Source: Candidatus Woesebacteria bacterium (GTDB lineage Bacteria > Patescibacteriota > Microgenomatia > UBA8517). From it: a stretch of DNA of 64,000 nucleotides. The notes under the pieces were generated by a model that searched no databases, was not told the DNA's origin, and saw only the letters and a program-made list of their open reading frames with translations. The translations under genes and the position numbers were made by a program. The stretch is taken from assembly GCA_963716475.1 (NCBI GenBank), contig OY970314.1:10479-74478 (forward strand), written 5' to 3'. Below, in pieces: positions 3,114 to 50,431 of this stretch (position 1 is its first letter; the number at the start of each line of letters is the position of its first letter).

Positions 3114-3135
3114 ACAATGTCTTGAAAGAAGAAAA

Positions 3136-19743: not shown

Positions 19744-19746
19744 TGG

Positions 19747-29140: not shown

Positions 29141-29144
29141 TTGT

Positions 29145-29895
29145 TTATTTTGCTACCACAATTTGCCACTCATTGTTATTTCCCAATTTATAAACCGCCG
29201 GTACTGTTTTCGGGGTAGAGTATTCATAGATTAGTTCTTTAGTTTCCCCAGCTTTCAAATTTACCTGCCAGGAAATTATTTTTCCTTCCTCACCTTTGTC
29301 AGTAACCTTGGCAGGTCCCTGCCAGGGGATAGTAAATCCTGCCGGGACGGTGTCGGAAATTTCTCCCTGAAAATCTTTTGATGCCTTAACAATAAAACGG
29401 ACGGGATATCTTTCAGACCAAACCCGGATTAATTCTGGTTGCGGCTTCCCTGACTATATCAAGATCTCTTTTATCAACTACCTTAAATGTATTATTGGTT
29501 AAGTTTTTGGTGTCCAAATTTGTTAACTTAAGTTTGTAGGTTCCTGTTTTTTGAGGAACAAACTTGAAGAAATAGTCCGGATTGTTAGTCACATTATCTC
29601 CGCAAGTAGAAGATTTTTTGATATCTTTCATTTTTGTACCGTTTATTTTTAGTTCCAAATTAGCATCACAAAGAGTATTTCCATTTGGATCAAGCACCCC
29701 CATTTGGATGGTTGCAGTTTCGCCGGGTAAATACTCCGTCCTATCGCTGTTTACGGCCAGGATGCCTTTCGATAAATTATTATTTGCTATGTTATTTTTA
29801 GTCAAAATAATGTACACAAAAACACCCCCGAGCAAAAGTAATATGGCTTTTGTGATTAATATCTTTTTATTTATTTTTATTTTTTTGTTGCTCAT
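29145..29895 (-). pseudogene. Frameshifted paralogue of the N-terminal Ig-like domains of the adjacent 1005-aa protein
   Basis: The 160-aa ORF (29413-29895) is homologous to residues ~150-260 of the 1005-aa protein ('CGDNVTNNPDYFFKF..TGTYKLKLTNLD' vs 'CGADNVTDSPDYYSYY..GIYRMKLTNLD'; 'ATRINP'). The homology continues in another frame down to the TAA at 29145 ('ISDTVPAGFTIPWQ...WQVNLKAGETKELIYEYSTPKTVPAVYKLG' vs 'IKEEVPQSFQI...WDTVLKAGVAKTFSYTYQAPNITPQIFLLG'). The frameshift lies near 29410-29435. Confidence 0.5.
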
Positions 29896-29905
29896 TTTAA
29901 AATAA

Positions 29906-32900: not shown

Positions 32901-32923
32901 TTTATTGCACTTGTACAATCCAC
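29906..32923 (-). CDS. Secreted multi-domain surface protein (1005 aa): Ig-like domains, BNR/Asp-box-like beta-propeller region and a conserved C-terminal module
   Basis: Signal peptide 'MSKKLLGFVLALITLTASATQVMA' (the likely true start is ~32896). Asp-box-like 'SSNGTSWTE' and 'ADEGTEWS'. The C-terminal 130 aa are homologous to the C-terminus of the 1799-aa protein. Confidence 0.75.
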   Translation of the reverse strand: MDCTSAIKFMSKKLLGFVLALITLTASATQVMASDNTINTPTASFTISTDNIYPAGTTPKIGIQESKNLGQDFVSIFRQLIGQSPKHTLKITDPAGEIELREINGDTTEIPLPTAALHPGTYHLAVDGQPVTDFSWGVLVINTSQSVYKTGDTAYIQMASLDSSGHTLCDSRLQIIITDPQGRTENTGIAKSQSCGADNVTDSPDYYSYYKTTISGIYRMKLTNLDNKFETESSFQVEDTLPVKVERIGATRINPFKSSYTMTIKITADQDWSGIIKEEVPQSFQIINSQTNWDTVLKAGVAKTFSYTYQAPNITPQIFLLGPLTVGNFRESQQWQLASDSPTSNSFQRKTWYDTTDALYWRSSNDTANSRIMFEYSSNGTSWTENTTARITVNTNDFSVETDSTTGTTYLFIVYTTSNDIRGRAATSYPGTGFGWSGETTVFNGTGASDDYSYPVISRDSSSQVWVLARYTGSSIYYIKTIKDATTNTLPVDTSDSVYSISDITNANSNIYGNIVPLTTGQMYAMWVRGTTIEGKLYSGSDGTVSKSISKTADEGTEWSTSGFSTTDPNDVAGSYSALVYNSFYCFNNATMSGTITNSYIKFIAHDASTGSPKISVYGVKADNPSAPTSHALMDGLALTSANVSWNASNWSANAATTSASLNAIFQELVNNFTISNDNVIVELRDNASGGTNYNSTWDYSGASASAALLHVDYSGWDYASPLIATGSSGISNSISVVADSSGNTHMVYIDQNGHAVYQKRTSSWQTAVTLDSNSGNAYPTISLNTSTGDIYAFWIRGNHIYYKKAVSPYASGDWDASATDWKTTGTNTDVTANYSGAGYIFAEWYDGSNVQWGKVLPSSNSAPNTPSLNSPTDTATNQSIRPMLKTTATDPNSDYLEYKITLCENSGMSANCKTFDETGDQTGWIGQDANGGLAYASGTQAIYTIQSADTLQNNKTYYWESYAFDPTPGSNSWSGTQASPYSFTTVSSGTFSAHGLNLKGFNLN

Positions 32924-35900
32924 CAGTTAAAACTGACGTCTGTATCAATTGAATTGGCAAAACCGACTACAAATTGCCCCGCCTGCTTACTCTTTACATA
33001 TAGTACGTTGTTCTCTGTCGAGGAGGTCGGGGTTACATAAATAAGCGTGTAGTCCGTAACTTTCGGATTTTTAATTGTGATCTCGCTCGTTCCTGCGGGA
33101 ATTACGGCTTGTCCGACTGTCGAATTTGTCGTAATGACACCGTCTATAATAGTACCCGACTCCGTTGCGTCAGACCCCGCAATCACAAGTTGGGGAGTGG
33201 AAACCGAGCCGAACTGGGCATTTCCGCCGGCGTTAACCGAGGCAACTTCCGAACCGGAACTGTTCTGGAGAGAAAGCAGGGCAGAGGCCGTTGCCGATTC
33301 TTGGTTGTCGGTTGCAGACAATGTTAAACCGGAAGATTTAATACGGCCGGCAACATACAAGTCTCCCGCGATATTAACATTTCCGTGAGTATCGATAGTG
33401 ACTAAGCCTGCCATGATTTCAAGAGGCGCCATGGCCAGAGATTGCAGCTTGAGCGGAGCGGAAAGAGTATCAATGCTATTTACTCCCGAGCCGATTACCA
33501 TATCAGGTCCGACCGTCAAGGCGTTTGTTACCGACAGGGAATTAAAGGCGGCTTGATTTGTAACATAAAGATCGGCAACAGCCAGTTCGTCAAGACTTGC
33601 GGAGTTGGTCGCGGTCAGGACATTCCAATTTGCCGCGTCTTTGAGAAGATTTTGGTCTGCCTGAACACTTGTCAAAAGTGCCTGGATGTCATCCAGACTC
33701 TTGGATTTTATTTCATCTGCGAACAAAGTTCCCGAAACGGATGCGTTACCGGCAAAAGCGGCGTTGCCCTGATTATCAATTGATGCCACCGCGCTCCCAC
33801 TGGCATTCTGGACTACAAATTGTCCTGAAGGAGTTGAGGTTGAACCAACCTGTACTGTTACATCAGTGCCGTCGGCAAGAGGGGAGATGAGTTTTGTTTG
33901 GATGTTGCCCGCGACGAGGCCCGACCTGATAAGTAGATTATCGACAGTTCCCTGGAAAGCCGTAAATCCTTGAGCTACCAAGTTTTGGGCAGTTACCGCG
34001 CCCGAGGTAACATTTTCAGCTACGAAATCAGTGGTTGTAACCACTCCCGCTTTAACGTTTGCCGCAACAACATTGGCAAACGCCCCGATTCTATCAATAA
34101 CAGTTCCACCGTTGGTCAATCGGTATGTACTGGCAGAATCAGTTGCATTGGCAACTGCCTGAATATTCACGTCTCCGATTGATGTAAGGTAGACATCCGG
34201 ATCATACCAGGAGACATTGACGAATGTACTGATTTTGTTGGTATCGGTGACTTGGGTGTAGTTTTCAAGTGCTTTACCGACAACCCGGCCGGGACGGGTA
34301 GCTTTCATAGCCACGCCGGGGGTTGAAGAGGAGGTTAGGAAATCGCCGATATGGATAGGACCATTTTCAAGAGAAACAGCAAGTGGTACACGGCCTGCAA
34401 GGGTAACAACAGCAGTTCCGGCACTTGGAGTGGCGCCACCACTGCCAAGGCTACTATAGCCCGATTTAAAAACGATATTCGGATTGGTGCTTACTATTCC
34501 TATGATGTTAGGATCATAGACTTGCTGGCTCTTGACGACAGTCTCATTTCCACTCCCAGTGGTAACAATTTCGCCGGCTGATAGCGATTCAGAAGTTGGA
34601 TATTCCTCGGCGAGATCGAAGGAAGTGTTATTGGTATCATAGCGGATAGTGCCTGCGACACCTGCAGGACAGGCAGTAACGTCTTGAACACAGACACTGC
34701 CCTTAACATGAAGCGTAGCATTTGGAGTAACCGTACCGATACCAACACTGCCGGCGTTATCAATGGCCATTTTAGCAGACCAGGTTGCGGCACTCCTTGT
34801 CCAAAACTGCATCTCCCCGTCCGTATCGCTGCCATAGCGTACCGCATAAACACCGCCAATGTAATTCGGGCCGGCAGTGTTATCCTGTATTGATAATGTG
34901 ATGCCGGTACCATGAGAATCTGCCATGTCCCCGGTGGTCTTTCCAACTATATCCAACGCGGCAGCAGCAGCAGCTGTGGTGGTAACAGTCCTTGTAAATC
35001 TGCCTGCATAAGTTCCACTGGTGGTGGCAGTTGCCTCGAGCGGAAAACTGGGCGTTGAATTCCCAAGGCCGAGGTTGCCGGCAAAGGAGTTTTTTTCAGT
35101 CCCTGACTGATAGATACCGAAGTTATTTGTAATTGTGCCGACGGTGACACTAGCAGGCAAATAGATAGCGTAGCCATTAGTTATGGTTCCCGTGGCGTTA
35201 TTGTTGGCTACTGCGACTTCAAGAGCATACATACTTGTTACGGCACCCGTTCCTTGTTTTATGGGGCTAAAAACCCCTCCAAGTATGGTGCCGATAGTCC
35301 CACTGGATTGGTTAGTCGGACTAAAGTAACCACCATAAAGAGTGGTAATCGTTCCCGTAGTTGTGTTTTGTGGGGCTACATCCAATCCAACCAGTGCAGC
35401 AAGTGTATTTCCCGTAGTAGCTGAGAAATCGGGTGTAATTAACTCTCCGTAATAAGTGCCTGTATTCGCGGTTGTTTGGGAGCCGTGTATGTAAGTATTC
35501 CAATAGTCAGAACCCGTACTGGCAGAGGTTCCGAGAACGTCAAACATGGCAGCGGGGGCTTCAGCAATACCGACCCCGCCGGTATCGCCATTGATTGTCA
35601 TTAAAGTTGAGAACGTCCCCGTTCCCGTTTGCTGCATGAATTGGTAACCCTGAATTCCCGCATTTGAGTTAGCACGGCGGCTGATGAGATCAAATTCTCC
35701 TTGGCCATTGGTCATGTTAAAAGTCAGTGCTCCTCCGAATCCGGTGGCAAGGGTCGAAAGATCGGCGGCTTGTTCATTATCATTAAAATCAAGTGCAAGA
35801 TAACCGTTATTCGAATTGCTGGAGTTAATATCGAAAGTTGCGTCAGGAGTTGTTGTCCCGATACCAACGATACCAGTAGCGGTAATGTTTAATAAAGAGC

Positions 35901-38900
35901 TCCCTGAAGATGATGCAACATTAAAAGGTGAAATTCCCGCCGTACCCGATACATCCAATTTACTCGTTGCGTTCATATTTCCAACTCCGACTCGGCCGCC
36001 AAAGTAGTTATGTTCACCGGTACCTGCCTGGTATAGACCGTAGTCGTTTGTAATCACGCCGGTTGTAGTACTGTCTTGGATTAGGAGACCATAACCGTAG
36101 TCTACTGTTGCCGAAGCGTTAGTGTTAATCACTCCGGCACGGACTCCAACCAGACTGCTTACTCCACCGGTTCCCTGGTCCATGGCGAGAAAAGAACCTG
36201 CTTCCAGATTAGTAACTGTTCCGCTTGATGTATTGGTTGGACTTGCCTTTACCCCGTAAAGACCGGAGATTGCACCAGTACTTGCATTGTACGGATCAGC
36301 TTCTAATCCGGCAAGTTGGGTAAGCGTATTCCCAGAGGCGGCAGAATAATCTGGGGTCATATATATTCCAATATAAGAGCCCGAATTAGCTGTTGTTTGG
36401 GCACCTAATATATGAATACCGAAATAATTACTACTGGCAAGGATTGAATCATGACTAATCGTAAGATAACCATCAGGTCCTGTCGTCCCAAGGCCGAGGT
36501 TGCCGGTTCCCAGATTAAACCAGGCATTTTGGTTATTGATTCCCGGTACATGGAAGTAAGCCGAGGCAGAGGCAGTATTGCCTACATTGAGTGCATATAA
36601 ATTGTTGGCGGGGGAAAGCGAGACACTGCCGGTTAATTGCCAGTAGTTTGTCATCCCTGCAGGACAGTGGTTACCAGCTGAATCACAGACTTGATTTGCC
36701 CCTTGGAAAAGTGCCTGTCCGTATATATTCCTGAACTCCAGGGATGAAGAAGTACCAATGTCAGAAGCATCGGTTGCACCGGGAATAACATTTCCTGCAT
36801 TTGTGATGACAAATTTCTTTGCCCCTGAAACAGAGGCTGAGAAAATATCTCCGCCTTTAGTCTGATCGACCATCAGGGCAGCCAGTCCGGGATTTCCTGC
36901 TGCCGGGTTTTGAATCAGCCAGCTGCCGTTTGTAAGAAGATTATAAGATCCGGCTGCGGTTGGGCTTGATGGGAAACTGATTGTCGTGGTTCCGTTGCTG
37001 CTTGTTATGATTCTGCTGTCAAGGAATAAAGTTCCATCCAGTTCCAATCCGCCTCCAATCAGAACATCCGAGGAAGCCGAAAGGCTATGGCCGGTAGTTG
37101 CTGACCCGCTAAATCTGGAATAAGCAACATTGGCAAGGTTACCAACTTGGAGTGAGCCTGTTGTCGATCGAATATCACCGGCTACGTCTAAGACTTCCGA
37201 AGGAGCTGTTGTCCCAATGCCGACACTGCCGGTTCCCAGATTAAACCAGGCATTATTGTTGGTAATTCCGGGTACATGGAAGGTGGTTGAGGCTGAGGTG
37301 CTGGCAGTATTTCCTACATTAAGTGCATATAAATTGTTTGCGGGGGAAAGGGAGACACCGCCGGTAAGTTGCCAGTAGTTAGTTCCACCTGCAGGACAGT
37401 TGTCACCGTTACTGTCACAGACCGCATAGTGTGATGCTCCCTCGTAGAAGGTGGTGGCATATACATTTCTCCAGCCGACGGTGGAAGTTCCCAGATCGCT
37501 TACATTATTGGTATTGGGTGCAACATATCCACCGGCTATGTGATTGCTGGGATCAAGTGTTATGTTACCTGTTGAGTTTCCACCGATTACCAATGGATTA
37601 AAGACAGTTGTCTGGATTGTTCCTGTTCCCGCCCTAAAGGCCAGAGTTCCGGAAACTGAAGCATTACCGGCAACGTCAAGCGTTACAATTGGCGTAGTTG
37701 TTCCAATACCGACGTTACCTGTGCCCAGGTTAAACCAGGCGTTTTGGTTATTGATTCCCGGTGCATGGAAGAAAGCCGAGGTGCTGGCAGTGTTACCCAC
37801 ATTAAGTGCATATAAATTGTTGGCGGGGGATAGCGAAACACCGCCGGTTAATTGCCAGTAGTTAGTAATTCCTGCAGGACAACCTGTACCGGTACTGTCA
37901 CAGACAGTGTTTCCTGCCTGGTAAAAGCTGGTTGCATATATATTCCTCCAGCGTAGGGCATTAGTTCCAAGATCGCTTACATTATTGGTATTGGCTGCCA
38001 CATATCCACCGGCTATGTGATTGCTCGGATCAAGGGTTATGTTACCTGTTGAGTTTCCACCGATTACCAATGGATTAAAGACAGTTGTCTGGATGGTTCC
38101 TGTTCCTGCCCTAAAGGCCAGGGTTCCTGAGACAGAGGCATTACCGGCAACATCAAGGGGAGCAGTGGGAGTAGATGTCCCTATTCCGACATTGCCTGCA
38201 AAGTAGTTATTTGAAGCTGTCTGGGAGTAGATTCCGTAGCTCCAGCCAGTCCCTATGTTAACTGCATACCCGGTTCCTGCCCCTGCTGTTATGCCGTCAA
38301 TCTTAATGGCATTCTCGGAAACACCGGATGTCGGAGTAAATCCTACCATTCTATATCCGTTCCAGGTACTACCGCTGCCTACGGTGTTGGAGGTTAAATC
38401 GATTCTTTCGGCACTGGCTTCAATTGCACCCGACCCGGCCACGTAGCTGATTTGTATACCACTTACGCCTGCGGATGTAACCCCGTAACCGGTATTGGCA
38501 ATATTGACCATATCGGCAGTCGGAACGGCTGAGGTTGCGACTTTGATCTGTCCCGTTACATCGGAAACGGTAAGGCCGGCTGCCCAGGTGTTGGATCCTG
38601 ATTTATATGCCAGGGTAAGTGGACCGTATTGGGATCTGATGGCATCTCCGTATCCTACCGTCAGAGTACCGCTCATTGAGGCATCTCCTGTTGCCGCAAA
38701 TACCTGGAACCTGGCAGAAGCAGTTGAGTTTCCTCCTACTGCCAGATCATAATCCGATGAATTCGCGGGAGCTAAAACATGACTGGCAAGTTGCCAGTAG
38801 TTTGTCATTCCGGCAGGACAACCTGTACCGGTACTGTCACAGACAGTGTTTCCTGCCTGGTAAAAGCTGGTTGCATATATATTCCTCCAGCGTAGGGCAT

Positions 38901-40848
38901 TAGTTCCAAGATCGCTTACATTATTGGTATTGGCTGCCACATATCCGCCGGCTATGTGATTGCTCGGATCAAGTGTGATATTACCTGTTGAGTTTCCACC
39001 GATTACCAATGGATTAAAGACAGTTGTCTGGATTGTTCCTGTTCCTGCCCTAAAGGCCAGAGTTCCTGAGAGGGAAGCGGTTCCTGCTATATCTAGGACC
39101 GCTGTTGGAGTAGTTGTCTCAATCCCAATGTTGCTTGCAAAGTAAGCTCCACCCGCACTAGTGATATAAGATACTGCATTAGTGGTATTTGAAGCACGAT
39201 CATAAAGTGTGAATGGGTAAGTGAACGACGGGTCGTGTGTTTGGTCGTTATTAAGCCCCAGCGCGATACTTCCGGTCTGGTTAATCCCAACACCGACTGC
39301 GGTTGCAGCCCTATTTCCAAACCGGACGAATCCTGAAGAGTTGTGTGGAGCGATTGTCAAATCACCATATGTATTATCTGCGTTAATGATATTATATCCG
39401 TTGGTATTTATCTGTAATCCGTTTCCGCCAGTCGAAATCTGAGATACATCTTGGTTTGCATTGCCCGTGTCAGGATTCCAACCAAAGTTAATATTATTGG
39501 TAAGAGCACCCTTATCTAATATGTTCATACCAATTTCGGAGTTGTTATTACTTAGAGAATCCATATCAGCGTAAATTTGGGCTGCTTCGGTTGCTGCCGG
39601 ATAAGCATCTGTTCTTTGTATTACAAAACCTAATGCCGGGCCAAATCCATTAGAGGGACCAGTATCCGAAACAGCTAACGTTGTAATTTCAGTAGGTGTG
39701 GTGCTGTGAACGGCATATTTTACAGACAAAGGTGTAGATGGTGCCGTTGTCCCAATGCCGAGGTTACCGGTTCCCAGGTTAAACCAGGCATTTTGGTTAT
39801 TGATTCCCGGTACATGGAAGTAAGCCGAGGTGCTGGCGGTGTTACCTACATTAAGTGCATATAAATTGTTAGCGGGGGAAAGAGAGACACCGCCTGTTAG
39901 TTGCCAGTAGTTGGTCATTCCGGCAGGACAGTGGTTACCACCGCTGTCACAGACTTGGTAGGCTCCCTGGAACACCGCAGTTGCTGACACGCTGGCAATG
40001 TTGTAGAGACTGTCTCCTGCAAACGAAATAAAATTACTTGCAGCATCAATTGTTATATCTCCCGCCGTATTGGAGAGAGTTGATGTTGCGCCCAGGAGTT
40101 TCAGAGTGCCGTCGTTTGCCAAAACCATCCTTGTTGTTCCCGATGCTGATGCAGTAAGTATATCTTGTGATTCATACTGATCTACCAGGAATGCCGCTTT
40201 CCCGGTCGCGTTGGCTGAGGGTGCAACGACAGAGAGTTTTGAAAATGGAGAGGATGTCCCTATACCTATGTTCCCGAAGCCGTTGGGATTAAGGAGAACA
40301 TTTCCGGTTGTGTTGTAGGTTGAGGAGTTACCGATGGTTATGCTGTTGCGGAGAGTACTTGAAATATTACCGTTTCCGTCAATGAAGGTGGCAACACCGG
40401 CTGTTGAACCGGAGATACTTGCTGTCGGAGTATTTTTCAGAACGTTAATGAATGCAAACTTGGCACTGGCTGTGGCACTGTTCCCGATTAAAAGATCCAT
40501 AGTGGTATTACCCGGATATATGGTTCCGAGGCCAAGGGCCCAGTAGTTAACTCCGGTAGCAGGACAGTTGTCTCCGTTACTGTTACAGACCGCATAGTGT
40601 GATGCTCCCTCGTAGAAGGTGGTGGCATATACATTTCTCCAAAGTAGAGAGGAAGTTCCAAGATCAGATACGTTAGTAGTATTGGCTGCCACATATCCAC
40701 CGGCTATGTGATTGCTCGGATCAAGTGTAATGTTACCTGTTGAGTTTCCACCGATTACCAATGGATTAAAGACAGTTGTCTGGATGGTTCCTGTTCCTGC
40801 CCTAAAGGCCAGGGTTCCGGAGACAGAGGCCATTACCGGCAACATCAA
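32902..40848 (-). CDS. Giant repetitive surface protein, 2648-aa ORF; probably the C-terminal continuation of the 40802..49882 ORF
   Basis: It has no signal peptide or TM of its own and begins mid-repeat ('..ASVSGTLAFRAGTGTIQTTVFNPL..'). It is built from ~250-aa modules containing 'NYWQL..', 'GNVGIGTTTP..LDVAGNASVSG' (phage tail-fibre-repeat-like). The C-terminal region 'FADEIKSKSLDDIQALL..' has a distinct tail. Confidence 0.75.
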   Translation of the reverse strand: MMLPVMASVSGTLAFRAGTGTIQTTVFNPLVIGGNSTGNITLDPSNHIAGGYVAANTTNVSDLGTSSLLWRNVYATTFYEGASHYAVCNSNGDNCPATGVNYWALGLGTIYPGNTTMDLLIGNSATASAKFAFINVLKNTPTASISGSTAGVATFIDGNGNISSTLRNSITIGNSSTYNTTGNVLLNPNGFGNIGIGTSSPFSKLSVVAPSANATGKAAFLVDQYESQDILTASASGTTRMVLANDGTLKLLGATSTLSNTAGDITIDAASNFISFAGDSLYNIASVSATAVFQGAYQVCDSGGNHCPAGMTNYWQLTGGVSLSPANNLYALNVGNTASTSAYFHVPGINNQNAWFNLGTGNLGIGTTAPSTPLSVKYAVHSTTPTEITTLAVSDTGPSNGFGPALGFVIQRTDAYPAATEAAQIYADMDSLSNNNSEIGMNILDKGALTNNINFGWNPDTGNANQDVSQISTGGNGLQINTNGYNIINADNTYGDLTIAPHNSSGFVRFGNRAATAVGVGINQTGSIALGLNNDQTHDPSFTYPFTLYDRASNTTNAVSYITSAGGAYFASNIGIETTTPTAVLDIAGTASLSGTLAFRAGTGTIQTTVFNPLVIGGNSTGNITLDPSNHIAGGYVAANTNNVSDLGTNALRWRNIYATSFYQAGNTVCDSTGTGCPAGMTNYWQLASHVLAPANSSDYDLAVGGNSTASARFQVFAATGDASMSGTLTVGYGDAIRSQYGPLTLAYKSGSNTWAAGLTVSDVTGQIKVATSAVPTADMVNIANTGYGVTSAGVSGIQISYVAGSGAIEASAERIDLTSNTVGSGSTWNGYRMVGFTPTSGVSENAIKIDGITAGAGTGYAVNIGTGWSYGIYSQTASNNYFAGNVGIGTSTPTAPLDVAGNASVSGTLAFRAGTGTIQTTVFNPLVIGGNSTGNITLDPSNHIAGGYVAANTNNVSDLGTNALRWRNIYATSFYQAGNTVCDSTGTGCPAGITNYWQLTGGVSLSPANNLYALNVGNTASTSAFFHAPGINNQNAWFNLGTGNVGIGTTTPIVTLDVAGNASVSGTLAFRAGTGTIQTTVFNPLVIGGNSTGNITLDPSNHIAGGYVAPNTNNVSDLGTSTVGWRNVYATTFYEGASHYAVCDSNGDNCPAGGTNYWQLTGGVSLSPANNLYALNVGNTASTSASTTFHVPGITNNNAWFNLGTGSVGIGTTAPSEVLDVAGDIRSTTGSLQVGNLANVAYSRFSGSATTGHSLSASSDVLIGGGLELDGTLFLDSRIITSSNGTTTISFPSSPTAAGSYNLLTNGSWLIQNPAAGNPGLAALMVDQTKGGDIFSASVSGAKKFVITNAGNVIPGATDASDIGTSSSLEFRNIYGQALFQGANQVCDSAGNHCPAGMTNYWQLTGSVSLSPANNLYALNVGNTASASAYFHVPGINNQNAWFNLGTGNLGLGTTGPDGYLTISHDSILASSNYFGIHILGAQTTANSGSYIGIYMTPDYSAASGNTLTQLAGLEADPYNASTGAISGLYGVKASPTNTSSGTVTNLEAGSFLAMDQGTGGVSSLVGVRAGVINTNASATVDYGYGLLIQDSTTTGVITNDYGLYQAGTGEHNYFGGRVGVGNMNATSKLDVSGTAGISPFNVASSSGSSLLNITATGIVGIGTTTPDATFDINSSNSNNGYLALDFNDNEQAADLSTLATGFGGALTFNMTNGQGEFDLISRRANSNAGIQGYQFMQQTGTGTFSTLMTINGDTGGVGIAEAPAAMFDVLGTSASTGSDYWNTYIHGSQTTANTGTYYGELITPDFSATTGNTLAALVGLDVAPQNTTTGTITTLYGGYFSPTNQSSGTIGTILGGVFSPIKQGTGAVTSMYALEVAVANNNATGTITNGYAIYLPASVTVGTITNNFGIYQSGTEKNSFAGNLGLGNSTPSFPLEATATTSGTYAGRFTRTVTTTAAAAAALDIVGKTTGDMADSHGTGITLSIQDNTAGPNYIGGVYAVRYGSDTDGEMQFWTRSAATWSAKMAIDNAGSVGIGTVTPNATLHVKGSVCVQDVTACPAGVAGTIRYDTNNTSFDLAEEYPTSESLSAGEIVTTGSGNETVVKSQQVYDPNIIGIVSTNPNIVFKSGYSSLGSGGATPSAGTAVVTLAGRVPLAVSLENGPIHIGDFLTSSSTPGVAMKATRPGRVVGKALENYTQVTDTNKISTFVNVSWYDPDVYLTSIGDVNIQAVANATDSASTYRLTNGGTVIDRIGAFANVVAANVKAGVVTTTDFVAENVTSGAVTAQNLVAQGFTAFQGTVDNLLIRSGLVAGNIQTKLISPLADGTDVTVQVGSTSTPSGQFVVQNASGSAVASIDNQGNAAFAGNASVSGTLFADEIKSKSLDDIQALLTSVQADQNLLKDAANWNVLTATNSASLDELAVADLYVTNQAAFNSLSVTNALTVGPDMVIGSGVNSIDTLSAPLKLQSLAMAPLEIMAGLVTIDTHGNVNIAGDLYVAGRIKSSGLTLSATDNQESATASALLSLQNSSGSEVASVNAGGNAQFGSVSTPQLVIAGSDATESGTIIDGVITTNSTVGQAVIPAGTSEITIKNPKVTDYTLIYVTPTSSTENNVLYVKSKQAGQFVVGFANSIDTDVSFNWWIVQVQ
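37960..38765. repeat. ~0.8-kb near-identical intragenic repeat, copy 1 (coordinates approximate)
   Basis: Identical antisense ORF peptides at 38255..38446 = 40947..41138 = 43845..44036 and 38495..38752 = 41187..41444. Visual alignment of 38041-38200 with 40741-40900 shows identity. Confidence 0.7.
40113..40551. repeat. ~0.44-kb block repeated ~8 kb upstream at ~48088-48526
   Basis: The antisense ORF at 40334..40546 is identical to 48309..48521. The corresponding ~150 aa ('NYWALGLGTIYPGNTTMDLLIGNSATASAKF...DQYESQDILTASASG') are identical in both giant ORFs. Confidence 0.7.
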
Positions 40849-41455
40849 GGGGAGCAGTGGGAGAAGTTGTCCCTATTCCGACATTGCCTGCAAAGTAGTT
40901 ATTTGAAGCTGTCTGGGAGTAGATTCCGTAGCTCCAGCCAGTCCCTATGTTAACTGCATACCCGGTTCCTGCCCCTGCTGTTATGCCGTCAATCTTAATG
41001 GCATTCTCGGAAACACCGGATGTCGGAGTAAATCCTACCATTCTATATCCGTTCCAGGTACTGCCGCTGCCTACGGTGTTGGAGGTTAAATCGATTCTTT
41101 CGGCACTGGCTTCAATTGCACCCGACCCGGCCACGTAGCTGATTTGTATACCACTTACGCCTGCGGATGTAACCCCGTAACCGGTATTGGCAATATTGAC
41201 CATATCGGCAGTCGGAACGGCTGAGGTTGCGACTTTGATCTGTCCCGTTACATCGGAAACGGTAAGGCCGGCTGCCCAGGTGTTGGATCCTGATTTATAT
41301 GCCAGGGTAAGTGGACCGTATTGGGATCTGATGGCATCTCCGTATCCTACCGTCAGAGTACCGCTCATTGAGGCATCTCCTGTTGCCGCAAATACCTGGA
41401 ACCTGGCAGAAGCAGTTGAGTTTCCTCCTACTGCCAGATCATAATCCGATGAATT
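40660..41455. repeat. ~0.8-kb near-identical intragenic repeat, copy 2; spans the ORF junction and carries the extra C
   Basis: Same evidence as copy 1. Offset is 2692 nt from copy 1. Confidence 0.7.
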
Positions 41456-44400
41456 TGCAGGAGCCAGTACATGATTGGCAAGTTGCCAGTAGTTTATTCC
41501 GCTACAGCCGGATACACCTCCACCCGCATCACAGACCTGGTTTGCTCCCTGATATATGGTTGTTCCTTTGATATTTGTGCCATATATATTCCTCCAAAGT
41601 AATGAAGATGTTCCAAGATCAGATACGTTAGTAGTATTGGCTGCCACATACCCGCCGGCTATGTGATTGCTCGGATCAAGTGTAATGTTGCCTGTTGAGT
41701 TTCCACCGATTACCAACGGATTAAAGACAGTTGTCTGGATTGTTCCTGTTCCTGCCCTAAAGGCCAGGGTTCCTGAGACAGAGGCATTACCGGCAACATC
41801 CAATAGGGCAGTGGGGGAGGTTGTACCTATACCAACGTTGCCAGTACCTTTAAAAGTCACATTTCTGGTAAATGATGAGCTGGAACCGTATCCGAAAGAA
41901 ATATCGCCGCTGGAATCATAGGCGAATTCCTGAAGCAAACTGCTTTGTATACCGAATCCATAACCGGTTCCAGAACCGGCATCATAAAGAGCGATTTTGT
42001 TACCCAAAGTGGTTCCAAGTGAAAGTGGAAAGCTTGGGTTCGTTGTCCCAATACCAACATTGCCCGTTGCGGCTACATTTAATATTGAAGTTCCTGAAGA
42101 TGAGGCAACATTGAGCGGAGAAACCCCTGCCGTACCTAGGACATCCAGTTTACTTGCTGGGTTATTTATCCCAATGCCGACTTTACCACCTGTTATTCCC
42201 AAATCGCCGCTACTATTAACACCAAAATCTACATTGTTGAAATACGTTCCTTCTGTTAACCGTAATGCAATAGAGGAACTGGTTGTAATTCGGGCAGCCA
42301 AAGCGCTACCTGCTTCAACCTGGAGTTTATAGACAGGTGCTGTTGTCCCAATACCGATGTTGCCGGTTGAAGCCACGTTTAATAATGATCCGCCCGATGA
42401 TGATGCAACATTAAATGGAGAAACTCCTACTAAACCTAGAATGTCCAATCTGCTGACTGGTGTTGTTCCGATGCCAATATTTCCACCGGTAGGATTTAAT
42501 ACCAAGTCACCAAAAACTGAACCCTCGGCCGCTATTGATTGAATGGCGTTAACTCCGGATGTGTCCGCACTTCTCCCCATGCGTAGATAAGTCCCTCCTG
42601 TGTCGGTATTACCAACGGCAAATGGCCAATAATATCCGCTTGCAGACGATCCCAGAGGGCGCACCTGCAAAGAAGTGGTTGGGCTTGTTGTCCCAATACC
42701 CAGGTCGCCAGTCCCTAAGTTAAACCAGGCATTATTGTTGGTAATTCCAGGTACATGGAAGGTGGTTGAGGCTGAAGTGCTGGCGGTATTGCCTATATTA
42801 AGTGCATATAAATTGTTGGCGGGGGAAAGGGAGACACCGCCTGTTAGTTGCCAGTAGTTGGTTCCGCCGCAGCCGGATACACCTCCACCCGCATCACAGA
42901 CCTGGTTTACTCCCTGGTATAGTTTCTGTGCATATATGTTCCTGAATTCCAAAGAGGAGGAAGTACCAAGGTCTATAGCATTATTGGCGCCGGGAACAAC
43001 ATTACCTGCATTAGTGGAAGGAGAGAGGATAATATTACCCGTGTTATTTCCTCCTATGGTTAAAGGACTAAAGGCTGTTGTTTGAATGTATCCTGTCCCT
43101 GCCCTGAATGCCAGAGTTCCTGAGACTGAAGCATTGCCATTGACATCAAGTGCTACTGATGGAGTAGTTGTTCCAATTCCAACATATCCGTTTATATCAG
43201 TTAGAGTTAATCCTGCAACAAAGGAATTTGAACCCGATTTGTAACGTAAAGTAAGAGGACCGTAAGCGGGTTGAATACCGTTTCCATAGCCAATAGTTAG
43301 TGATCCGGACATACTGGCATCTCCTGTTGCCGCAAATACCTGGAACCTGGCAGAAGCAGTTGAGTTTCCTCCTACTGCCAGATCATAATCCGATGAATTT
43401 GCAGGAGCTAAAACATGGTTGGCAAGTTGCCAGTAGTTTATTCCGCTACAGCCGGATACACCTCCGCCTGCATCACAGACCTGGTTTGCTCCCTGATATA
43501 TGGTTGTTCCTTTGATATTTGTGCCATATATATTCCTCCAAAGTAATGAAGATGTTCCAAGATCAGATACGTTAGTAGTATTGGCTGCCACATACCCGCC
43601 GGCTATGTGATTGCTCGGATCAAGTGTAATGTTGCCTGTTGAGTTTCCACCGATTACCAACGGATTAAAGACAGTTGTCTGGATTGTTCCTGTTCCTGCC
43701 CTAAAGGCCAGAGTTCCGGAAACTGAAGCCGCTCCGGCAACATCAAGGGGAGCAGTGGGTGAAGTTGTCCCTATTCCGACATTGCCTGCAAAGTAGTTAT
43801 TTGAAGCTGTCTGGGAGTAGATTCCGTAGCTCCAGCCAGTCCCTATGTTAACTGCATACCCGGTTCCTGCCCCTGCTGTTATGCCGTCAATCTTAATGGC
43901 ATTCTCGGAAACACCGGACGTCGGGGTAAATCCTACCATTCTATATCCGTTCCAGGTACTGCCGCTGCCTACGGTGTTGGAGGTTAAATCGATTCTTTCG
44001 GCACTGGCTTCAATTGCACCTGAACCTGCCACGTAGGTGAGCTGTATGGCACTACTTCCTGCCGTGGTAACCGGGTAACCCGTGTTGCTAACGGTAAACA
44101 CATCAGTAGTCGGAGCAACAGAGGCTGCAATTTTGACTGCTCCAGTTACATCGGCAATAGTTAACCCGGGTGACCAGGTATTGGATCCTGATTTATAATT
44201 CAAGGTGAGTGGGCCGTATGCACTTTGTATGGCTTGTCCGTTGGCAATCGTCAGAGTACCGCTCATTGAGGCATTACCTGTTGCTGCAAATACCTGGAAC
44301 CTGGCAGAAGCAGTTGAGTTTCCTCCTACTGCCAGATCATAATCCGATGAATTTGCAGGAGCTAAAACATGGTTGGCAAGTTGCCAGTAGTTTATTCCGC

Positions 44401-47400
44401 TACAGCCTGATACACCTCCGCCTGCATCACAGACCTGGTTTACGCCCTGATATAGTTTCTGTGCATATATGTTCCTGAATTCCAGAGAAGAGGAAGTACC
44501 TAAATCAGTTCTGTCTGTGATACCCGGAGAGACATTTCCTCCTGTTATATTATTGGAAGGAGCAAGGACAATGTTGCCTGTTGTTGTTCCCCCAATGGTT
44601 AAAGGACTAAAGGTGTTTGTCTGGATGGATGATGCTCCTGCATGGAATAAAAGACCGCTTACGGATGCATTTCCGTAAACATCCAGGTTGACACCTGGAA
44701 CACCTCCTATACCAAGCCAACCTTGTATAAAAACATTGCCATTGGTAAAATAGCCTGCCCAATTCGTAGTCCCGCCTGTGGCGGTACCGTAGACGCCATA
44801 ATTTGTTGCGGATCCTTGTGCGTTCCCCTCGACCCCATAGACATTACTATTGCCTTTGGCGACGCCGAGTACGCCAATATTGGATCCTAAAGTACTGAGA
44901 GCATTGCCGGTGATAGCGGTTTGGCTGCTGTCATTGGTGGTGGTGATTAAACCAGCGCCGTAACCGATAGCTGCTAATATTTCTAATTTTGCTGTTGGTG
45001 CCGTTGTTCCAATACCAACATTGCCAAGCGAAGCCACGGGATTAAGAAGTATATTTCCGGTGGTGTCGTAGGTTGATGAATTTCCAAGAACTAGATTGTT
45101 ACGGTTTGTTGTGGATATATTTCCGTTGCCGTCAATAAAAGTAGCTACCCCTGCAGTTGTTCCTGCGATACTGGCTGTGGGTGTTCCTCCTGTGGGAATA
45201 CCTGTGAAAGCAAACTTGGCACTGGTGGTGGCTGTTGCCGCCGTGGCACCAAAGAAAACATTAACAGTATTATTAAGTGGGTAAATGGATCCTAGGGATT
45301 GTCCCCAGATGGTAGCTCCTGCGGGGCATCCTGTGCCTCCCGCATCACAGACCTGATTTGCTCCCTGATATATGGTTGTTCCTTTGATATTTGTGCCATA
45401 TATATTCCTCCAAAGTAGGGAAGAAGTTCCAAGGTCGCTTACATTTGTGGTATTTGGTGCCACATATCCGCCGGCGATGTGATTGCTCGGATCGAGTGTG
45501 ATATTACCTGTTGAATTTCCACCAATGACCAGTGGATTAAAAGCAGTGGTTTGGATAGTTGGTGAACCGGCTGTTCTAAAGGTTAGTGATCCCGATACTG
45601 AGGCTGCTCCGGCCACATCAAGCGTGGAGGTTGGAGCAGTTGTACCGATTCCGACCCTGGAGTTATTGGTATCAAGTGACATAAGAGTGGATTCAAAAGA
45701 AAGGGCATTGACGGTAGCATTTTTAAGATCAAGGTTTGGTGTGCTGTTACTGAGTGTCCAGGTATTGGGCCAGATGGTTAAGCTGTCACCCGTGGCATCT
45801 CCAAGTGTGGTATTACCCTGGATTGTTCCTGCATTTAGAATGGCATTCCCTGAAGAATCAATAGAGTAGGTAGTTCCGTTAAAGTAAAGGTATCCTGCCC
45901 CGGTTGTTAAGTTGGCTCCGTTGGCAGTTAGGGCAGTTGAACCTCTGGAGTTAATGATGACATTACCTGTGGAAGTGCCTCCGAGTGTCAGGTCCTGGGC
46001 TTTGGTTGTTGATAAGACTCCGTTACCCGTCAGGTAAGTGGCATACCCTGCGGCACTTCCCGCAATACTGGCTGTGGGAGTTCCACCGGTATTTACCCCT
46101 GTGAAAGCAAACTTGGCAGAGGAGGTGGCAGTTGAACCGATGAGAAGATCAACGCTGCTATTCTTGGGATATATGGCTCCGGCGGCTACGCTCCAGAGAT
46201 CGGTAGCTGCCGCACAGTTTCCAGAAGAATCACAAACTGCATTGTTACCGGCTCCCTGGTAGAATGACGTGGCATATATATTCCTCCAGAGCAGGGAAGA
46301 AGTACCAAGGTCAGATACATTTGTGGTATTTGGTGCAACATATCCGCCGGCGATGTGGTTAGAAGGATCGAGCGTGATATTACCGGTTGAATTTCCACCA
46401 ATGACCAGTGGATTAAAAGCAGTGGTTTGGATGGTTGGTGAACCGGCTGTTCTAAAGGTTAGTGATCCTGATACTGAGGCTGCTCCGGCTACATCAAGTG
46501 TGGAGGTTGGAGCAGTTGTACCGATTCCGACCCTGCCTGTTCCCAAATTAAACCAAGCATCCGCATTATTGGTTCCGGGTACGTGGAAGTAGGCTGAGGT
46601 ACTGGCAGTGTTACCTACATTAAATGCATATGTTGAGTTAGCAGGGGATAGTGAGACCCCGCCGGTTAGTTGCCAGTAGTTAGTTCCGAGTGTGGCAGGA
46701 TCACTCCAAGTATTGACTCCTCCTGCAGCTGAAGTTAGGAGATATCCTGAGGCACCGGCTACTCCTCCCGGAAGTAGGGCATTGGAGTACGAGACGTTGC
46801 CGATTCCTGCTAAAGCATTACCACTACCTACATTCAGGGAAGCAGACATTGTGGCGTAACCTGTTAAATTGAAGTTTCCATTTACATCCAGTAATTGTGA
46901 TGGGGAGGTGGTACCAATACCTACGTTGCCTGCGTTTGTTATTCTCATCTTTTCTGTTAATGCTCCTCCGGAAGAATTAGAAGTTAAAAATTGCATATAA
47001 CCGGCGGCATTTCCATCCGAGGCGTTTTCCTTTCTGCCAGCTAGACCTGCGAATGGAGTTGAAACTCCGCCGGAAGAGTAAATACCACCAATAGAAATTT
47101 GGCCGCCCTTGTCTATTGCATAAGCGTCCGTCGAAGAAACATAAACATTTCCTTTTGAGTTAAGAGCCTGGTTTGCACCGGCGGCATGTAATATGGCTAG
47201 GGGAGACGTTGTCCCAATTCCCACACTCCCGGCCGCATCAATAATAACCTTTGTTGTAGAGCTATTGACAAACTCAGCGAGAGTCCCGCTTGCAGCGGCT
47301 GAGTTAACTTCTACGTGTAGTCCTACGATTGTAGAGGAAAGGTTTTGAGCTCCGGCTTTAAACCAGCCTGCATATGCTTTATCTCCGGCGACGTCTCCCG

Positions 47401-49882
47401 TACCTCGGGCAGTACCAATAACCCCGTAATTTATTCCTGTCCCAGTGCCAAGAGTTCTTCCTTCTGTACCCAATATGGCGAAATTTGTTCCCGACGGTTC
47501 ATATCCCGTAGATGCACCCTGGACATACAGTTTTGCTGTCGGAGCGGTGACTCCAACTCCCACATTTCCAGTTCCCAGATTAAACCAGGCATTATTGTTG
47601 GTAATTCCGGGTACATGGAAGGTGGTTGAGGCTGAAGTGCTGGCGGTATTGCCTATATTAAGTGCATATAAATTATTGGCAGGGGAAAGGGAGACCCCAC
47701 CTGTTAGTTGCCAGTAGTTGGTACAACCTGAGCCGCTACTGTCGCACACCTGGTTTACTCCCTGATATAGTTTCTGCCCATATATGTTTCTGAACTCCAG
47801 GGAAGAGGAAGTACCAAGATCTGTTTTATCTGTGGAGCCCGGGGAGACATTACCTCCCAAAACATTATTTAAAGGAGCGAGGACGATATTGCCCGTTGTA
47901 GTTCCCCCGATTGTTAACAGATTTGAGGCAGTGGTTTGAACAGACCTTGATCCTCCTGCAAGTGTTAAATCACCCGAAGCTGAAGCACTTCCTGTTACAA
48001 CCAATAGGCCGCTTGCCGGGGTGATCGTGATATTTCCGGAAAGGTTTGAGATGCTCGAAGAGGCATTGTACAGATTTAAAGTTCCGTCATTGGACAGGGT
48101 CAATCTGGTTGAGCCCGATGCTGATGCAGTAAGTATATCTTGTGATTCATACTGATCTACCAGGAATGCCGCTTTCCCGGTCGCGTTGGCTGAGGGTGCA
48201 ACAACAGAGAGTTTTGAAAATGGAGAGGATGTCCCTATACCTATGTTCCCGAAGCCGTTGGGATTAAGGAGAACATTTCCGGTTGTGTTGTAGGTTGAGG
48301 AGTTACCGATGGTTATGCTATTGCGGAGAGTGCTTGAAATGTTACCGTTTCCGTCAATGAAGGTGGCAACACCGGCTGTTGAACCGGAGATACTTGCTGT
48401 CGGAGTATTTTTCAGAACGTTAATGAATGCAAACTTGGCACTGGCTGTGGCACTATTCCCGATTAAAAGATCCATAGTGGTATTACCCGGATATATGGTT
48501 CCGAGGCCAAGGGCCCAGTAGTTGGTTCCAAGGCTTGAAGGGCTTGTCCAAGTAGGCGGTCCGCTATTATTGTGCGTTGTTAAAATATTACCTTCAGTTC
48601 CTGCACCAAGTATTCCACCCATAGTAGTGGTGCTATCGTAGTAGGGAATTGCATACTGAGTGGCCGACGAGTTATTTGCTCCTGTCCCGCCGTATTGTAT
48701 GGGGACAACGCCGCCGTGCCAGGTTCCGCCTGTTATTGTTCCACCGGAGACCGCCAAGCCGTTAATTGTTCCCGATGCTGTTGCATTTCCAACTGCATCA
48801 ACAACAAATCTGTTTGCTGGTGTTGCCCCTGCCTGTAATTGTAGGAGATTGTAACCCGTGGCATTACTGGCGACGGCTCCGTAATAAAGAGATTTTGAGG
48901 TGAGGTTGGCGTCTGTCGCGTTCACAAATCCTCCTGCGCTGCCTCCCGGAGCAGCCCCCGAAAAGTTAAAATTAGCAGATCCGGTTCCATCTGGTGCGAT
49001 AGTGATTGATCCATTAGAACTTGTAGGAGTGCTTATTGTCAGAACTTGTCCTTCAATTGCAAATGTGCCCGATGTTGACTGAATTTTGGGAGAGCCTGCT
49101 GCAATGACCATCTGCCCGGAGTTATTCAATACGGGAACGGTATTGATTGTCGCGGATGAACTGGCCGGATAGCCTTGCAGAGTTTCGGAGTTCAAAGCAT
49201 AGGCAACGGTTGCGATCTGGACTCTGGGAATGGCCTCGGCATCGGCTGCAACAGTAACTCCCAGCCAGACAGCCGCGTTATCCGAAAAAACGCTGCTTGT
49301 AAGTTCTGTTCCGCATCCGTTTCCGAGGAGGATAGAGAAGACTCCATCAATGTCCGGAGAAACGGAACATGAACCTGAATTCCAAAGTGTGCTGCCACCG
49401 CTGGAATTATCGTATAGTTTGAATACAACACCAGTAGCAGTTGTTATCGGATTTCCAAATTGATTTGTCAGCCTGCCCTGGAATGATAGGTAACGGTTCG
49501 GACGGTTCAAGGCAGTAAGAGCGAACGGGGAAGTGGCATTCTTAAAAAACTGATTATATATTCCCAGGCCGACCAGAGATGTAAGGATTAAGGCTATCGC
49601 AATATTAAGATAGTTAACTCCAGGTATGCTTCGATACCTATTGTACCAATTGTAAAGCCTGATTTTCCCCGCAGGTTTTGCGGAGATTTTCCTTTCCTTT
49701 TGCTTTTGAGCCGAGAGAAGATCTCCAAGATTTGTATCTACAATGCCTTCACTTTTAGCCCAGTCAAGAAACTTGCCGATGGATATTGATTTTCTTTTAA
49801 CTGTTGCGGGCGAGAAGTGCCCGATAAGTTCTTCCTGATATTTTCTTATTAAATCCGGTGTGATATTGGGCAGGGTAGCCAT
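40802..49882 (-). CDS. Giant repetitive surface protein, 3026-aa ORF: cytoplasmic SAM-like half-domain, one TM, then tail-fibre-like repeat modules
   Basis: N-terminus 'ITPDLIRKYQEELIGHFSPATVKRKSISIGKFLDWAKSEG' (integrase core-binding-like). TM 'YLNIAIALILTSLVGLGIY'. Then repeats identical in part to the 2648-aa ORF. It ends '..DVAGNGLCLRNPGL*' exactly where the sibling repeats read '..DVAGNASVSGTLAFRAG'. Confidence 0.8.
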   Translation of the reverse strand: MATLPNITPDLIRKYQEELIGHFSPATVKRKSISIGKFLDWAKSEGIVDTNLGDLLSAQKQKERKISAKPAGKIRLYNWYNRYRSIPGVNYLNIAIALILTSLVGLGIYNQFFKNATSPFALTALNRPNRYLSFQGRLTNQFGNPITTATGVVFKLYDNSSGGSTLWNSGSCSVSPDIDGVFSILLGNGCGTELTSSVFSDNAAVWLGVTVAADAEAIPRVQIATVAYALNSETLQGYPASSSATINTVPVLNNSGQMVIAAGSPKIQSTSGTFAIEGQVLTISTPTSSNGSITIAPDGTGSANFNFSGAAPGGSAGGFVNATDANLTSKSLYYGAVASNATGYNLLQLQAGATPANRFVVDAVGNATASGTINGLAVSGGTITGGTWHGGVVPIQYGGTGANNSSATQYAIPYYDSTTTMGGILGAGTEGNILTTHNNSGPPTWTSPSSLGTNYWALGLGTIYPGNTTMDLLIGNSATASAKFAFINVLKNTPTASISGSTAGVATFIDGNGNISSTLRNSITIGNSSTYNTTGNVLLNPNGFGNIGIGTSSPFSKLSVVAPSANATGKAAFLVDQYESQDILTASASGSTRLTLSNDGTLNLYNASSSISNLSGNITITPASGLLVVTGSASASGDLTLAGGSRSVQTTASNLLTIGGTTTGNIVLAPLNNVLGGNVSPGSTDKTDLGTSSSLEFRNIYGQKLYQGVNQVCDSSGSGCTNYWQLTGGVSLSPANNLYALNIGNTASTSASTTFHVPGITNNNAWFNLGTGNVGVGVTAPTAKLYVQGASTGYEPSGTNFAILGTEGRTLGTGTGINYGVIGTARGTGDVAGDKAYAGWFKAGAQNLSSTIVGLHVEVNSAAASGTLAEFVNSSTTKVIIDAAGSVGIGTTSPLAILHAAGANQALNSKGNVYVSSTDAYAIDKGGQISIGGIYSSGGVSTPFAGLAGRKENASDGNAAGYMQFLTSNSSGGALTEKMRITNAGNVGIGTTSPSQLLDVNGNFNLTGYATMSASLNVGSGNALAGIGNVSYSNALLPGGVAGASGYLLTSAAGGVNTWSDPATLGTNYWQLTGGVSLSPANSTYAFNVGNTASTSAYFHVPGTNNADAWFNLGTGRVGIGTTAPTSTLDVAGAASVSGSLTFRTAGSPTIQTTAFNPLVIGGNSTGNITLDPSNHIAGGYVAPNTTNVSDLGTSSLLWRNIYATSFYQGAGNNAVCDSSGNCAAATDLWSVAAGAIYPKNSSVDLLIGSTATSSAKFAFTGVNTGGTPTASIAGSAAGYATYLTGNGVLSTTKAQDLTLGGTSTGNVIINSRGSTALTANGANLTTGAGYLYFNGTTYSIDSSGNAILNAGTIQGNTTLGDATGDSLTIWPNTWTLSNSTPNLDLKNATVNALSFESTLMSLDTNNSRVGIGTTAPTSTLDVAGAASVSGSLTFRTAGSPTIQTTAFNPLVIGGNSTGNITLDPSNHIAGGYVAPNTTNVSDLGTSSLLWRNIYGTNIKGTTIYQGANQVCDAGGTGCPAGATIWGQSLGSIYPLNNTVNVFFGATAATATTSAKFAFTGIPTGGTPTASIAGTTAGVATFIDGNGNISTTNRNNLVLGNSSTYDTTGNILLNPVASLGNVGIGTTAPTAKLEILAAIGYGAGLITTTNDSSQTAITGNALSTLGSNIGVLGVAKGNSNVYGVEGNAQGSATNYGVYGTATGGTTNWAGYFTNGNVFIQGWLGIGGVPGVNLDVYGNASVSGLLFHAGASSIQTNTFSPLTIGGTTTGNIVLAPSNNITGGNVSPGITDRTDLGTSSSLEFRNIYAQKLYQGVNQVCDAGGGVSGCSGINYWQLANHVLAPANSSDYDLAVGGNSTASARFQVFAATGNASMSGTLTIANGQAIQSAYGPLTLNYKSGSNTWSPGLTIADVTGAVKIAASVAPTTDVFTVSNTGYPVTTAGSSAIQLTYVAGSGAIEASAERIDLTSNTVGSGSTWNGYRMVGFTPTSGVSENAIKIDGITAGAGTGYAVNIGTGWSYGIYSQTASNNYFAGNVGIGTTSPTAPLDVAGAASVSGTLAFRAGTGTIQTTVFNPLVIGGNSTGNITLDPSNHIAGGYVAANTTNVSDLGTSSLLWRNIYGTNIKGTTIYQGANQVCDAGGGVSGCSGINYWQLANHVLAPANSSDYDLAVGGNSTASARFQVFAATGDASMSGSLTIGYGNGIQPAYGPLTLRYKSGSNSFVAGLTLTDINGYVGIGTTTPSVALDVNGNASVSGTLAFRAGTGYIQTTAFSPLTIGGNNTGNIILSPSTNAGNVVPGANNAIDLGTSSSLEFRNIYAQKLYQGVNQVCDAGGGVSGCGGTNYWQLTGGVSLSPANNLYALNIGNTASTSASTTFHVPGITNNNAWFNLGTGDLGIGTTSPTTSLQVRPLGSSASGYYWPFAVGNTDTGGTYLRMGRSADTSGVNAIQSIAAEGSVFGDLVLNPTGGNIGIGTTPVSRLDILGLVGVSPFNVASSSGGSLLNVASTGNIGIGTTAPVYKLQVEAGSALAARITTSSSIALRLTEGTYFNNVDFGVNSSGDLGITGGKVGIGINNPASKLDVLGTAGVSPLNVASSSGTSILNVAATGNVGIGTTNPSFPLSLGTTLGNKIALYDAGSGTGYGFGIQSSLLQEFAYDSSGDISFGYGSSSSFTRNVTFKGTGNVGIGTTSPTALLDVAGNASVSGTLAFRAGTGTIQTTVFNPLVIGGNSTGNITLDPSNHIAGGYVAANTTNVSDLGTSSLLWRNIYGTNIKGTTIYQGANQVCDAGGGVSGCSGINYWQLANHVLAPANSSDYDLAVGGNSTASARFQVFAATGDASMSGTLTVGYGDAIRSQYGPLTLAYKSGSNTWAAGLTVSDVTGQIKVATSAVPTADMVNIANTGYGVTSAGVSGIQISYVAGSGAIEASAERIDLTSNTVGSGSTWNGYRMVGFTPTSGVSENAIKIDGITAGAGTGYAVNIGTGWSYGIYSQTASNNYFAGNVGIGTTSPTAPLDVAGNGLCLRNPGL
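43560..44050. repeat. Near-identical intragenic repeat, copy 3 (partial; coordinates approximate)
   Basis: 43845..44036 is identical to 38255..38446, and 43611..43796 is near-identical to 38021..38206. Confidence 0.6.
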
Positions 49883-49885: not shown

Positions 49886-50431
49886 TTAATTTTTTGATTT
49901 GTTTACCAAATTCTGATTTGGCCAAGTTTTGCTTATTTGTTTCTCAGATTCGAGCCAAAGAAGAAAATGTCTTATATCAGAAAGATAGTTTTTGATAGTG
50001 TTAGGAGAGACTTTCTCCCGCTCAAGCTGCCGCCTATAATCACTAAATATTGGATTAATACTAACTCCCTTGACAGGATTTGAACTGACGTTCTCGATGC
50101 CTTCGGTGAAATCATGATCGATAATGTGGCTTCCAAGTAGGAATCTTGACAGGTGCCTTAGGGTTGAAAGTCTGCGGTTTGTGGTCTTAGCCGGAACAGA
50201 ATTTCCAATCATGAAGTTTCTATATTCCTGAGCGAGCTCGGTGTTTAGAAAGGGGACAGTCTCAGTTAAAGATTCAATGTAGCTTCCCAATGATCTGATC
50301 TTCAATATAGCCCAGGCAAGGAAATGAACCAGATCGCTCCTGTAATTTTTATGGGATCGCGGGGAAAGACCTAGAGAGTTGAGGTAAATAATAAATTCTT
50401 TTCTGATTAAATCTGATTTTTGGTTGGGCAT
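49886..50431 (-). CDS. Tandem integrase-type SAM-like (core-binding) domain protein without catalytic domain (181 aa)
   Basis: First ~105 aa form a full Phage_integrase-N/XerD-N-like fold ('FIIYLNSLGLSPRSHKNYRSDLVHFLAWAI....TTNRRLSTLRHLSRFLL'). A second half-domain follows ('YRRQLEREKVSPNTIKNYLSDIRHFLLWLE'). No Tyr-recombinase catalytic region is present. The stop lies 2 codons in-frame before the giant ORF's ATG. Confidence 0.6.
   Translation of the reverse strand: MPNQKSDLIRKEFIIYLNSLGLSPRSHKNYRSDLVHFLAWAILKIRSLGSYIESLTETVPFLNTELAQEYRNFMIGNSVPAKTTNRRLSTLRHLSRFLLGSHIIDHDFTEGIENVSSNPVKGVSINPIFSDYRRQLEREKVSPNTIKNYLSDIRHFLLWLESEKQISKTWPNQNLVNKSKN

Follow-up and report, generated by a model that had tools for sequence, protein, structure and literature searches.

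The closest described relatives of the protein discussed here are the MAT proteins, trimeric beta-prism surface fibres that are kin to phage tail fibres, begin with a signal peptide, then a beta-rich domain of ~130 amino acids (aa) that is conserved, and in 13 of 21 cases carry at the C-terminus an S74 protease-chaperone with an SDxxxK motif (Caulton et al. 2024, PMC10769870). The present analysis concerns a 64-kb stretch of contig OY970314.1 from a Candidatus Woesebacteria bacterium (hereafter the window), whose minus strand carries two long, adjacent open reading frames (ORFs) that are very probably the halves of one fibre gene of ~5,659 residues, cut by a one-base insertion that is either an assembly error or a very recent mutation. 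The giant protein shares with the MATs of Bdellovibrio bacteriovorus (Bd2133/8OND, 8OJN, 8OML, 8OL4, 8ON4) a repeated 'xxMxIdxxGnVGIGTtxPxxxLhV' module, of which it carries ~25 copies. The MATs, in contrast, are several-fold shorter than its 5,659 aa, which include a cytoplasmic SAM-like unit and a transmembrane (TM) anchor.

The one-base difference between the two reading frames

On the plus strand, positions 40826-40840 read gaggccattaccggc, the string to which the preliminary description of the window had drawn attention. The minus strand of this copy reads GCCGGTAATGGCCTC, whereas five sibling copies of the same repeat read GCCGGTAATGCYTC, with one G fewer; among the copies matched by the pattern search below, those at 38135-38154, 41781-41800 and 37658-37677 read GATGTTGCCGGTAATGC(C/T)TC and the break copy GATGTTGCCGGTAATGGCCT. 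Where the siblings have a single G, the break copy thus has GG (minus strand; CC on the plus strand), which shifts the frame by +1. A mismatch-tolerant pattern search returned six matches of the motif (0.04 expected by chance) and located siblings with one base fewer at 38135-38154, 41781-41800 and 37658-37677, in agreement with the earlier claim of at least three siblings one C shorter. In a six-way MAFFT alignment, a single-column gap falls at the position of the extra base in 5/5 siblings.

The upstream ORF ends in ..PLDVAGNGLCLRNPGL*, its TAG (40802-40804) lying nine out-of-frame codons past the insertion, and the downstream ORF begins with MMLPVMASVSGTLAFRAGTGTIQ.. When one G is removed, a 16,980-nt ORF of 5,659 codons is obtained with no other stop; its frame reads ..PLDVAGNASVSGTLAFRAGTGTIQ.., just as in the siblings, and, likewise sibling-like, ..LDVAGNASVSGTLAFRAGTGTIQTTVF.. 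As originally proposed, the extra base ends the upstream ORF, and without it the frame runs on into the downstream one. The event itself would be a change from G to GG on the coding strand, placed inside the repeat core described below.

Near-identity between the copies is limited to a core of ~780 nt, where the break copy and its closest sibling differ at seven positions including the indel and share identical runs of 392, 195 and 89 nt; SNPs specific to the break copy lie at 40867, 40864, 40819, 40729 and 40726. The two cores lie 2.7 kb apart, that of the sibling being downstream of the one with the break. Over the full repeat of ~1 kb, identity falls to 92.6% for the best sibling and to 82-91% for the other copies, so that the 'near-identical repeat' of the preliminary description is an apt term for the core (99.1%) and too strong for the whole unit. 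The collapsed repeat suggested there has left no sign in the sequence, as frame and repeat register are otherwise intact, and was rejected. A diversity-generating retroelement target was also rejected, given that the copies do not differ specifically at adenines and that no reverse transcriptase was noted in the window, where no dedicated search for one was made.

Related loci were used to ask how the gene is organized elsewhere. A profile of the N-terminal 456 aa recovered 385 relatives among GTDB species-representative genomes, and 80 of their loci were retrieved for comparison. Both gene ends are visible in 35 loci, and 27 of these have the N- and C-terminal modules together in a single unbroken ORF of 1,482-3,638 aa. 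The eight exceptions are L001 and L002, which are error-ridden long-read contigs (the LeuRS of L002 is in three pieces), L005 and L079, which contain N gaps, L066, an irrelevant match, and L006, L053 and L060, where frameshift-like junctions occur at positions unrelated to the break in the window. In addition, the collection calls an ORF of 5,818 aa in L003, at least 3,230 aa of which were verified in the locus, and very long versions of the gene therefore exist; this ORF is followed by one of 936 aa, and the junction looks as if one base had been lost from a Gly-rich GC run. The breaks in homologs were placed at 14600-14700 (L006), 14940-14990 (L053), 9840-9860 (L003) and 11845-11911 (L001). 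Breaks of the giant gene are found in Illumina metagenome-assembled genomes (MAGs; L006) and long-read contigs alike, and the family is break-prone in assemblies.

In the window, both modules share one ORF, in the syntenic position, only after the one-base removal. Hydropathy places the sole TM-like segment of the protein in the upstream ORF (Table 1), no other segment coming close, and finds no TM or signal segment in the downstream half, as had been stated before. This absence and the 35-locus comparison, a check that the preliminary description had called for, support its view of a single gene of ~5.7 thousand codons split by one extra base.

Table 1. Features of the giant gene and its surroundings (positions in the window)
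Feature	Position	Strand	Remarks
Extra base	40830..40831	-	Five siblings with single G; removal restores 5,659-codon ORF
Upstream ORF, 3026 aa, ATG start, N-terminal half	40802..49882	-	SAM-like unit aa ~1-45, TM aa 91-109, fibre repeats
Downstream ORF, 2648 aa as listed from TTG, C-terminal half	32902..40848	-	Fibre repeats and ~600-aa C-terminal module
Repeat core containing the break	40678..41455	-	99.1% identical to 37987-38763
Sibling repeat core, in frame, without the extra base	37987..38763	-	Pattern search and alignment
181-aa gene, two Phage_int_SAM_1 units	49886..50431	-	Directly upstream, same frame as giant ORF
Second frameshifted gene	29106-29895	-	L013 orthologue intact

Origin of the extra base and other readings of the break

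The break is neither ancestral nor conserved, nor does it serve as a regulatory device. Since 2,633 codons downstream of it are still open, the event must be young whether it happened in the assembly or in the cell; had the lesion been older, gene conversion would probably have removed or copied it, the core being only six substitutions away from its sibling. The preliminary description had offered an error and a genuine recent inactivating frameshift side by side, and both stay live. We slightly favor a consensus or polishing error of the assembly, while a very recent loss-of-function mutation in the sampled population has a substantial chance of being the right answer, and anything other than these two carries only a small probability. 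There is nothing out of the ordinary in a one-base frameshift within a giant, repetitive gene when the genome comes from a metagenome: as in other such genes of MAGs, a single-base indel sits in a long near-identical repeat and both halves are otherwise open, and nothing sets the case in the window apart.

In favor of an error, the break lies within the long identical runs of the core, where consensus and polishing are weakest, and the homologs L001-L003, in long-read assemblies, are broken in the same manner. The repeats are resolved here beside a complete rRNA operon, which implies a long-read or curated assembly. Moreover, a blastx comparison with the ORFs of the relatives, covering 38.6 kb of the window, revealed exactly two frame breaks, the second being another one-base-insertion frameshift at ~29408-29428, 11 kb from the main break, in a unique MG2-like gene of ~255 aa. 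There, an ORF of 160 aa (29413..29895, with a TM/signal segment and the MG2-like part) ends in ..RINPGLV*, and the +1 frame runs on as ..SERYPVRFIVKASKDFQGEISD..EWQIVVAK* to ~29133; in L013 the orthologous protein (19213-20010) is in one piece and has the corresponding length. At the site itself the sequence is CCGGGTTTGGTCTGA, in which the extra base is not uniquely placeable, and one possible placement has the TG[G]YCT context, as at the main break. In-frame stops within the blastx high-scoring segment pairs were gene-boundary and shadow-frame artefacts only, and an apparent extension at 56543-57601 was dismissed after a check. An alternative genetic code was likewise rejected, all other genes reading normally with table 11.

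Several observations weigh against an error. The testable window contains no other frame break, its housekeeping genes (LeuRS, Rho and RadA among them) are all intact, neither of the two break sites is a long homopolymer (at the main break the run goes from one base to two), and the two breaks affect accessory genes for surface proteins within a single cluster, as would be expected under relaxed selection. A real mutation, in turn, has to be reconciled with the complete lack of decay downstream of the break. We looked for a second assembly with a copy-specific DNA pattern tolerating either indel state, which had no match in the GTDB genomes and JGI metagenomes, and exact-protein look-ups of four window proteins found none on record. 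If the insertion is real, the cell would make an anchored stump of 3,026 aa devoid of the C-terminal module, the C-terminal half would be cytoplasmic, probably untranslated and not exported, and a conserved adhesin would lose its function. In tail-fibre-like proteins, the C-terminal module typically nucleates folding and bears the distal binding tip.

It is very improbable that the two ORFs are genuine separate genes, the downstream protein starting in translational coupling at an ATG (MASVSG.., 40833-40831) or at the TTG at 40848. The in-frame ATG does lie 27 nt before the upstream stop, and split versions also exist in L006, L053 and L060; however, 27/35 relatives have a single ORF, the other splits are at unrelated positions, and the repeat unit that the junction divides midway runs through unbroken in five siblings. 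Native leaders in the window are AT-rich (26/29) and lack a Shine-Dalgarno (SD) sequence, an SD-like motif being present in 3/29 genes, and very short or leaderless mRNAs with SD-independent initiation are suggested for this organism. A missing SD is thus not disqualifying for a second gene, but the sequence preceding the ATG at the break is GC-rich, unlike the AT-rich native starts. We reject the two-gene reading because of the 27/35 intact loci, the lack of an export signal in the downstream product and this GC-rich start context. In several genes of the window a TATAAT-like box stands no more than ~20 nt from the ATG, which also points to very short or leaderless mRNAs.

A scenario in which the insertion is real and some full-length fibre is still made, through a +1 slip at CUU_UAG or gene conversion from the 99%-identical sibling, so that the repeats would toggle or tune the adhesin while the MG2-like gene is co-inactivated, also seems very far-fetched. 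Large surface adhesins are classic phase-variable genes, and a reversible switch of the giant adhesin by slipped-strand indels, raised in the preliminary description, would fit both this general pattern and the presence of a second frameshifted surface gene nearby. Such a switch is nevertheless scarcely credible in this case. The simple-sequence or homopolymer tract expected of a contingency locus was not found at the indel, as Tandem Repeats Finder detects no tandem repeat at 40600-41060, the longest homopolymer within 100 nt has four bases, the mutated run goes from one base to two, and the sibling copies have no tract either.

The last reading, programmed or fortuitous +1 frameshifting at CUU UAG G, where a slip of tRNA-Leu would rejoin the downstream frame, has next to no probability. 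The +1 frameshift site of prfB is CUU-UGA-C. In the window, as in prfB (RF2), a CUU and a stop stand at the end of the shifted tail, the junction being GGC CTT TAG GGC, and a +1 slip (..TTT AGG GCA..) would restore the frame and yield a full-length protein with nine residues replaced (GLCLRNPGL for ASVSGTLAF), so that ..NPGLRAGTGT.. would stand against the ..LDVAGNASVSGTLAFR.. of the intact frame. Unlike in prfB, however, the stop is UAG, no SD-like stimulator lies upstream, and the site is not conserved as a frameshift site: the orthologues are in frame and no relative needs frameshifting. The CTTTAGG arises when the GCC TTT AGG that is invariant in all repeat copies is read in another frame, and is hence coincidental, and without stimulators the efficiency would probably be at the percent level.

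The repaired protein and its likeness to known fibres

With the extra base removed, the protein would consist of a SAM-like helical unit, the TM segment, ~25 fibre modules and a conserved C-terminal module. Its motif 'GxVGIGTxxPxxxLxV' occurs 25 times, in large duplicated blocks, and points to the beta-prism fibre repeat of the MATs. The match to 8OND (Bd2133) has E=1.6e-6 with the single sequence (phmmer) and 2.1e-12 with the family profile, and four other MAT structures are matched as well (in the profile search, 8OML at 7e-6, 8OJN at 1.6e-5 and 8OL4 at 4e-5). Judging by these similarities, the giant protein would be, like the MATs, a surface-exposed fibre adhesin built of mosaic, duplicated blocks and kin to phage tail fibres, in this case probably anchored in the membrane.

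The two ends are of another kind. At the N-terminus, no match to the signal peptide and ~130-aa beta-rich domain of the MATs was found, their place being taken by the SAM-like unit and TM segment, and the ~350 aa after the TM are conserved among Microgenomates homologs only. The helical unit resembles the SAM-like units of the 181-aa ORF directly upstream (pairwise E of ~4e-4 to 8e-4), which is separated from the giant ORF by its TAA and one codon before the ATG. In the closest relatives (L006, L008-L012, L014) this ORF stands by itself, in various frames, whereas more distant ones (e.g., L013 and apparently L001) have it joined to the giant gene, with a cytoplasmic integrase-SAM-like module attached to a giant surface fibre.

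The C-terminal module of ~600 aa is conserved and ends in ..NWWIVQVQ. In contrast to the MATs, it has no Pfam match to S74 or G2 even at E<=10 and no SDxxxK motif; Pfam searches with both halves and with the N- and C-terminal ends at the same threshold gave nothing meaningful. Some homologs of the module do match Peptidase_S74 (PF13884) or Peptidase_G2 (PF11962), as in the chaperones of phage tail fibres and tailspikes, and the family profile matches the C-terminal auto-chaperone of phi29 gp12 (3GQH) weakly (E=0.013). Unlike phage tail fibres, the giant gene is chromosomal, with conserved synteny and 385 species-level relatives, and a prophage tail-fibre gene was rejected on the grounds of this synteny.

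Structure prediction was not used as primary evidence. For the last 620 aa, an AlphaFold2 (AF2) model of the monomer has low overall quality (mean pLDDT 60.5), with two confident beta domains, and a Foldseek search of the PDB with this low-confidence model gave weak matches to phage capsid decoration proteins and to tailspike and pyocin-fibre termini. The interpretation as a fibre, and as a putative trimer, is drawn from sequence similarity, the monomer model being poor and the fold matches weak.

Gene family, neighborhood and annotation

The N-terminal homologs all belong to Candidatus Woesebacteria and other Microgenomates (candidate phyla radiation [CPR]/Patescibacteria), the best being 76% identical, and almost all are 'partial' at contig ends. 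This indicates that the family systematically breaks short-read assemblies, leaving most of its database homologs partial. The gene order of the window, namely LeuRS, ComEA, ComEC, the 181-aa Phage_int_SAM protein, the giant gene, TPR/Wzy_C, LysM-M23 and Rho, is shared by L001, L003 and L005, and the giant TM-anchored fibre with its integrase-SAM-like unit is syntenic and near-universal in Microgenomates. We found nothing specific in the literature on a fibre-protein family of the CPR, and the family appears to be a new, seemingly undescribed group of unusually large and unusually anchored MAT/tail-fibre-like adhesins. The fibre is a candidate host-attachment structure of these presumed episymbionts. 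As a by-product of the analysis, the family is mildly interesting and biologically more useful than the frameshift.

Annotation should treat the two ORFs as a single gene, flagged as frameshifted (pseudogene or low-quality call), in place of two hypothetical proteins, and the frameshift at ~29.4 kb merits the same flag.

The giant gene belongs to a surface-protein cluster of ~26 kb, in which two more large secreted proteins are encoded downstream (23741-32923, minus strand), one of 1005 aa with its own signal peptide and a weak MG2 match and one of 1799 aa with a weak G8 match. At the start of the window, a 5S rRNA (2998-3114) follows a complete 23S rRNA (16-2948; model positions 1-2925, with no large insertion), both on the plus strand, and no 16S rRNA was detected, either in the 15 nt that precede the 23S or elsewhere in the window. 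ComEC is present as two overlapping plus-strand ORFs, 61771-62877 with the Competence domain and 62706-63752 with Lactamase_B. Since L005 has its ComEC divided likewise, this arrangement is probably native rather than the product of a frameshift.

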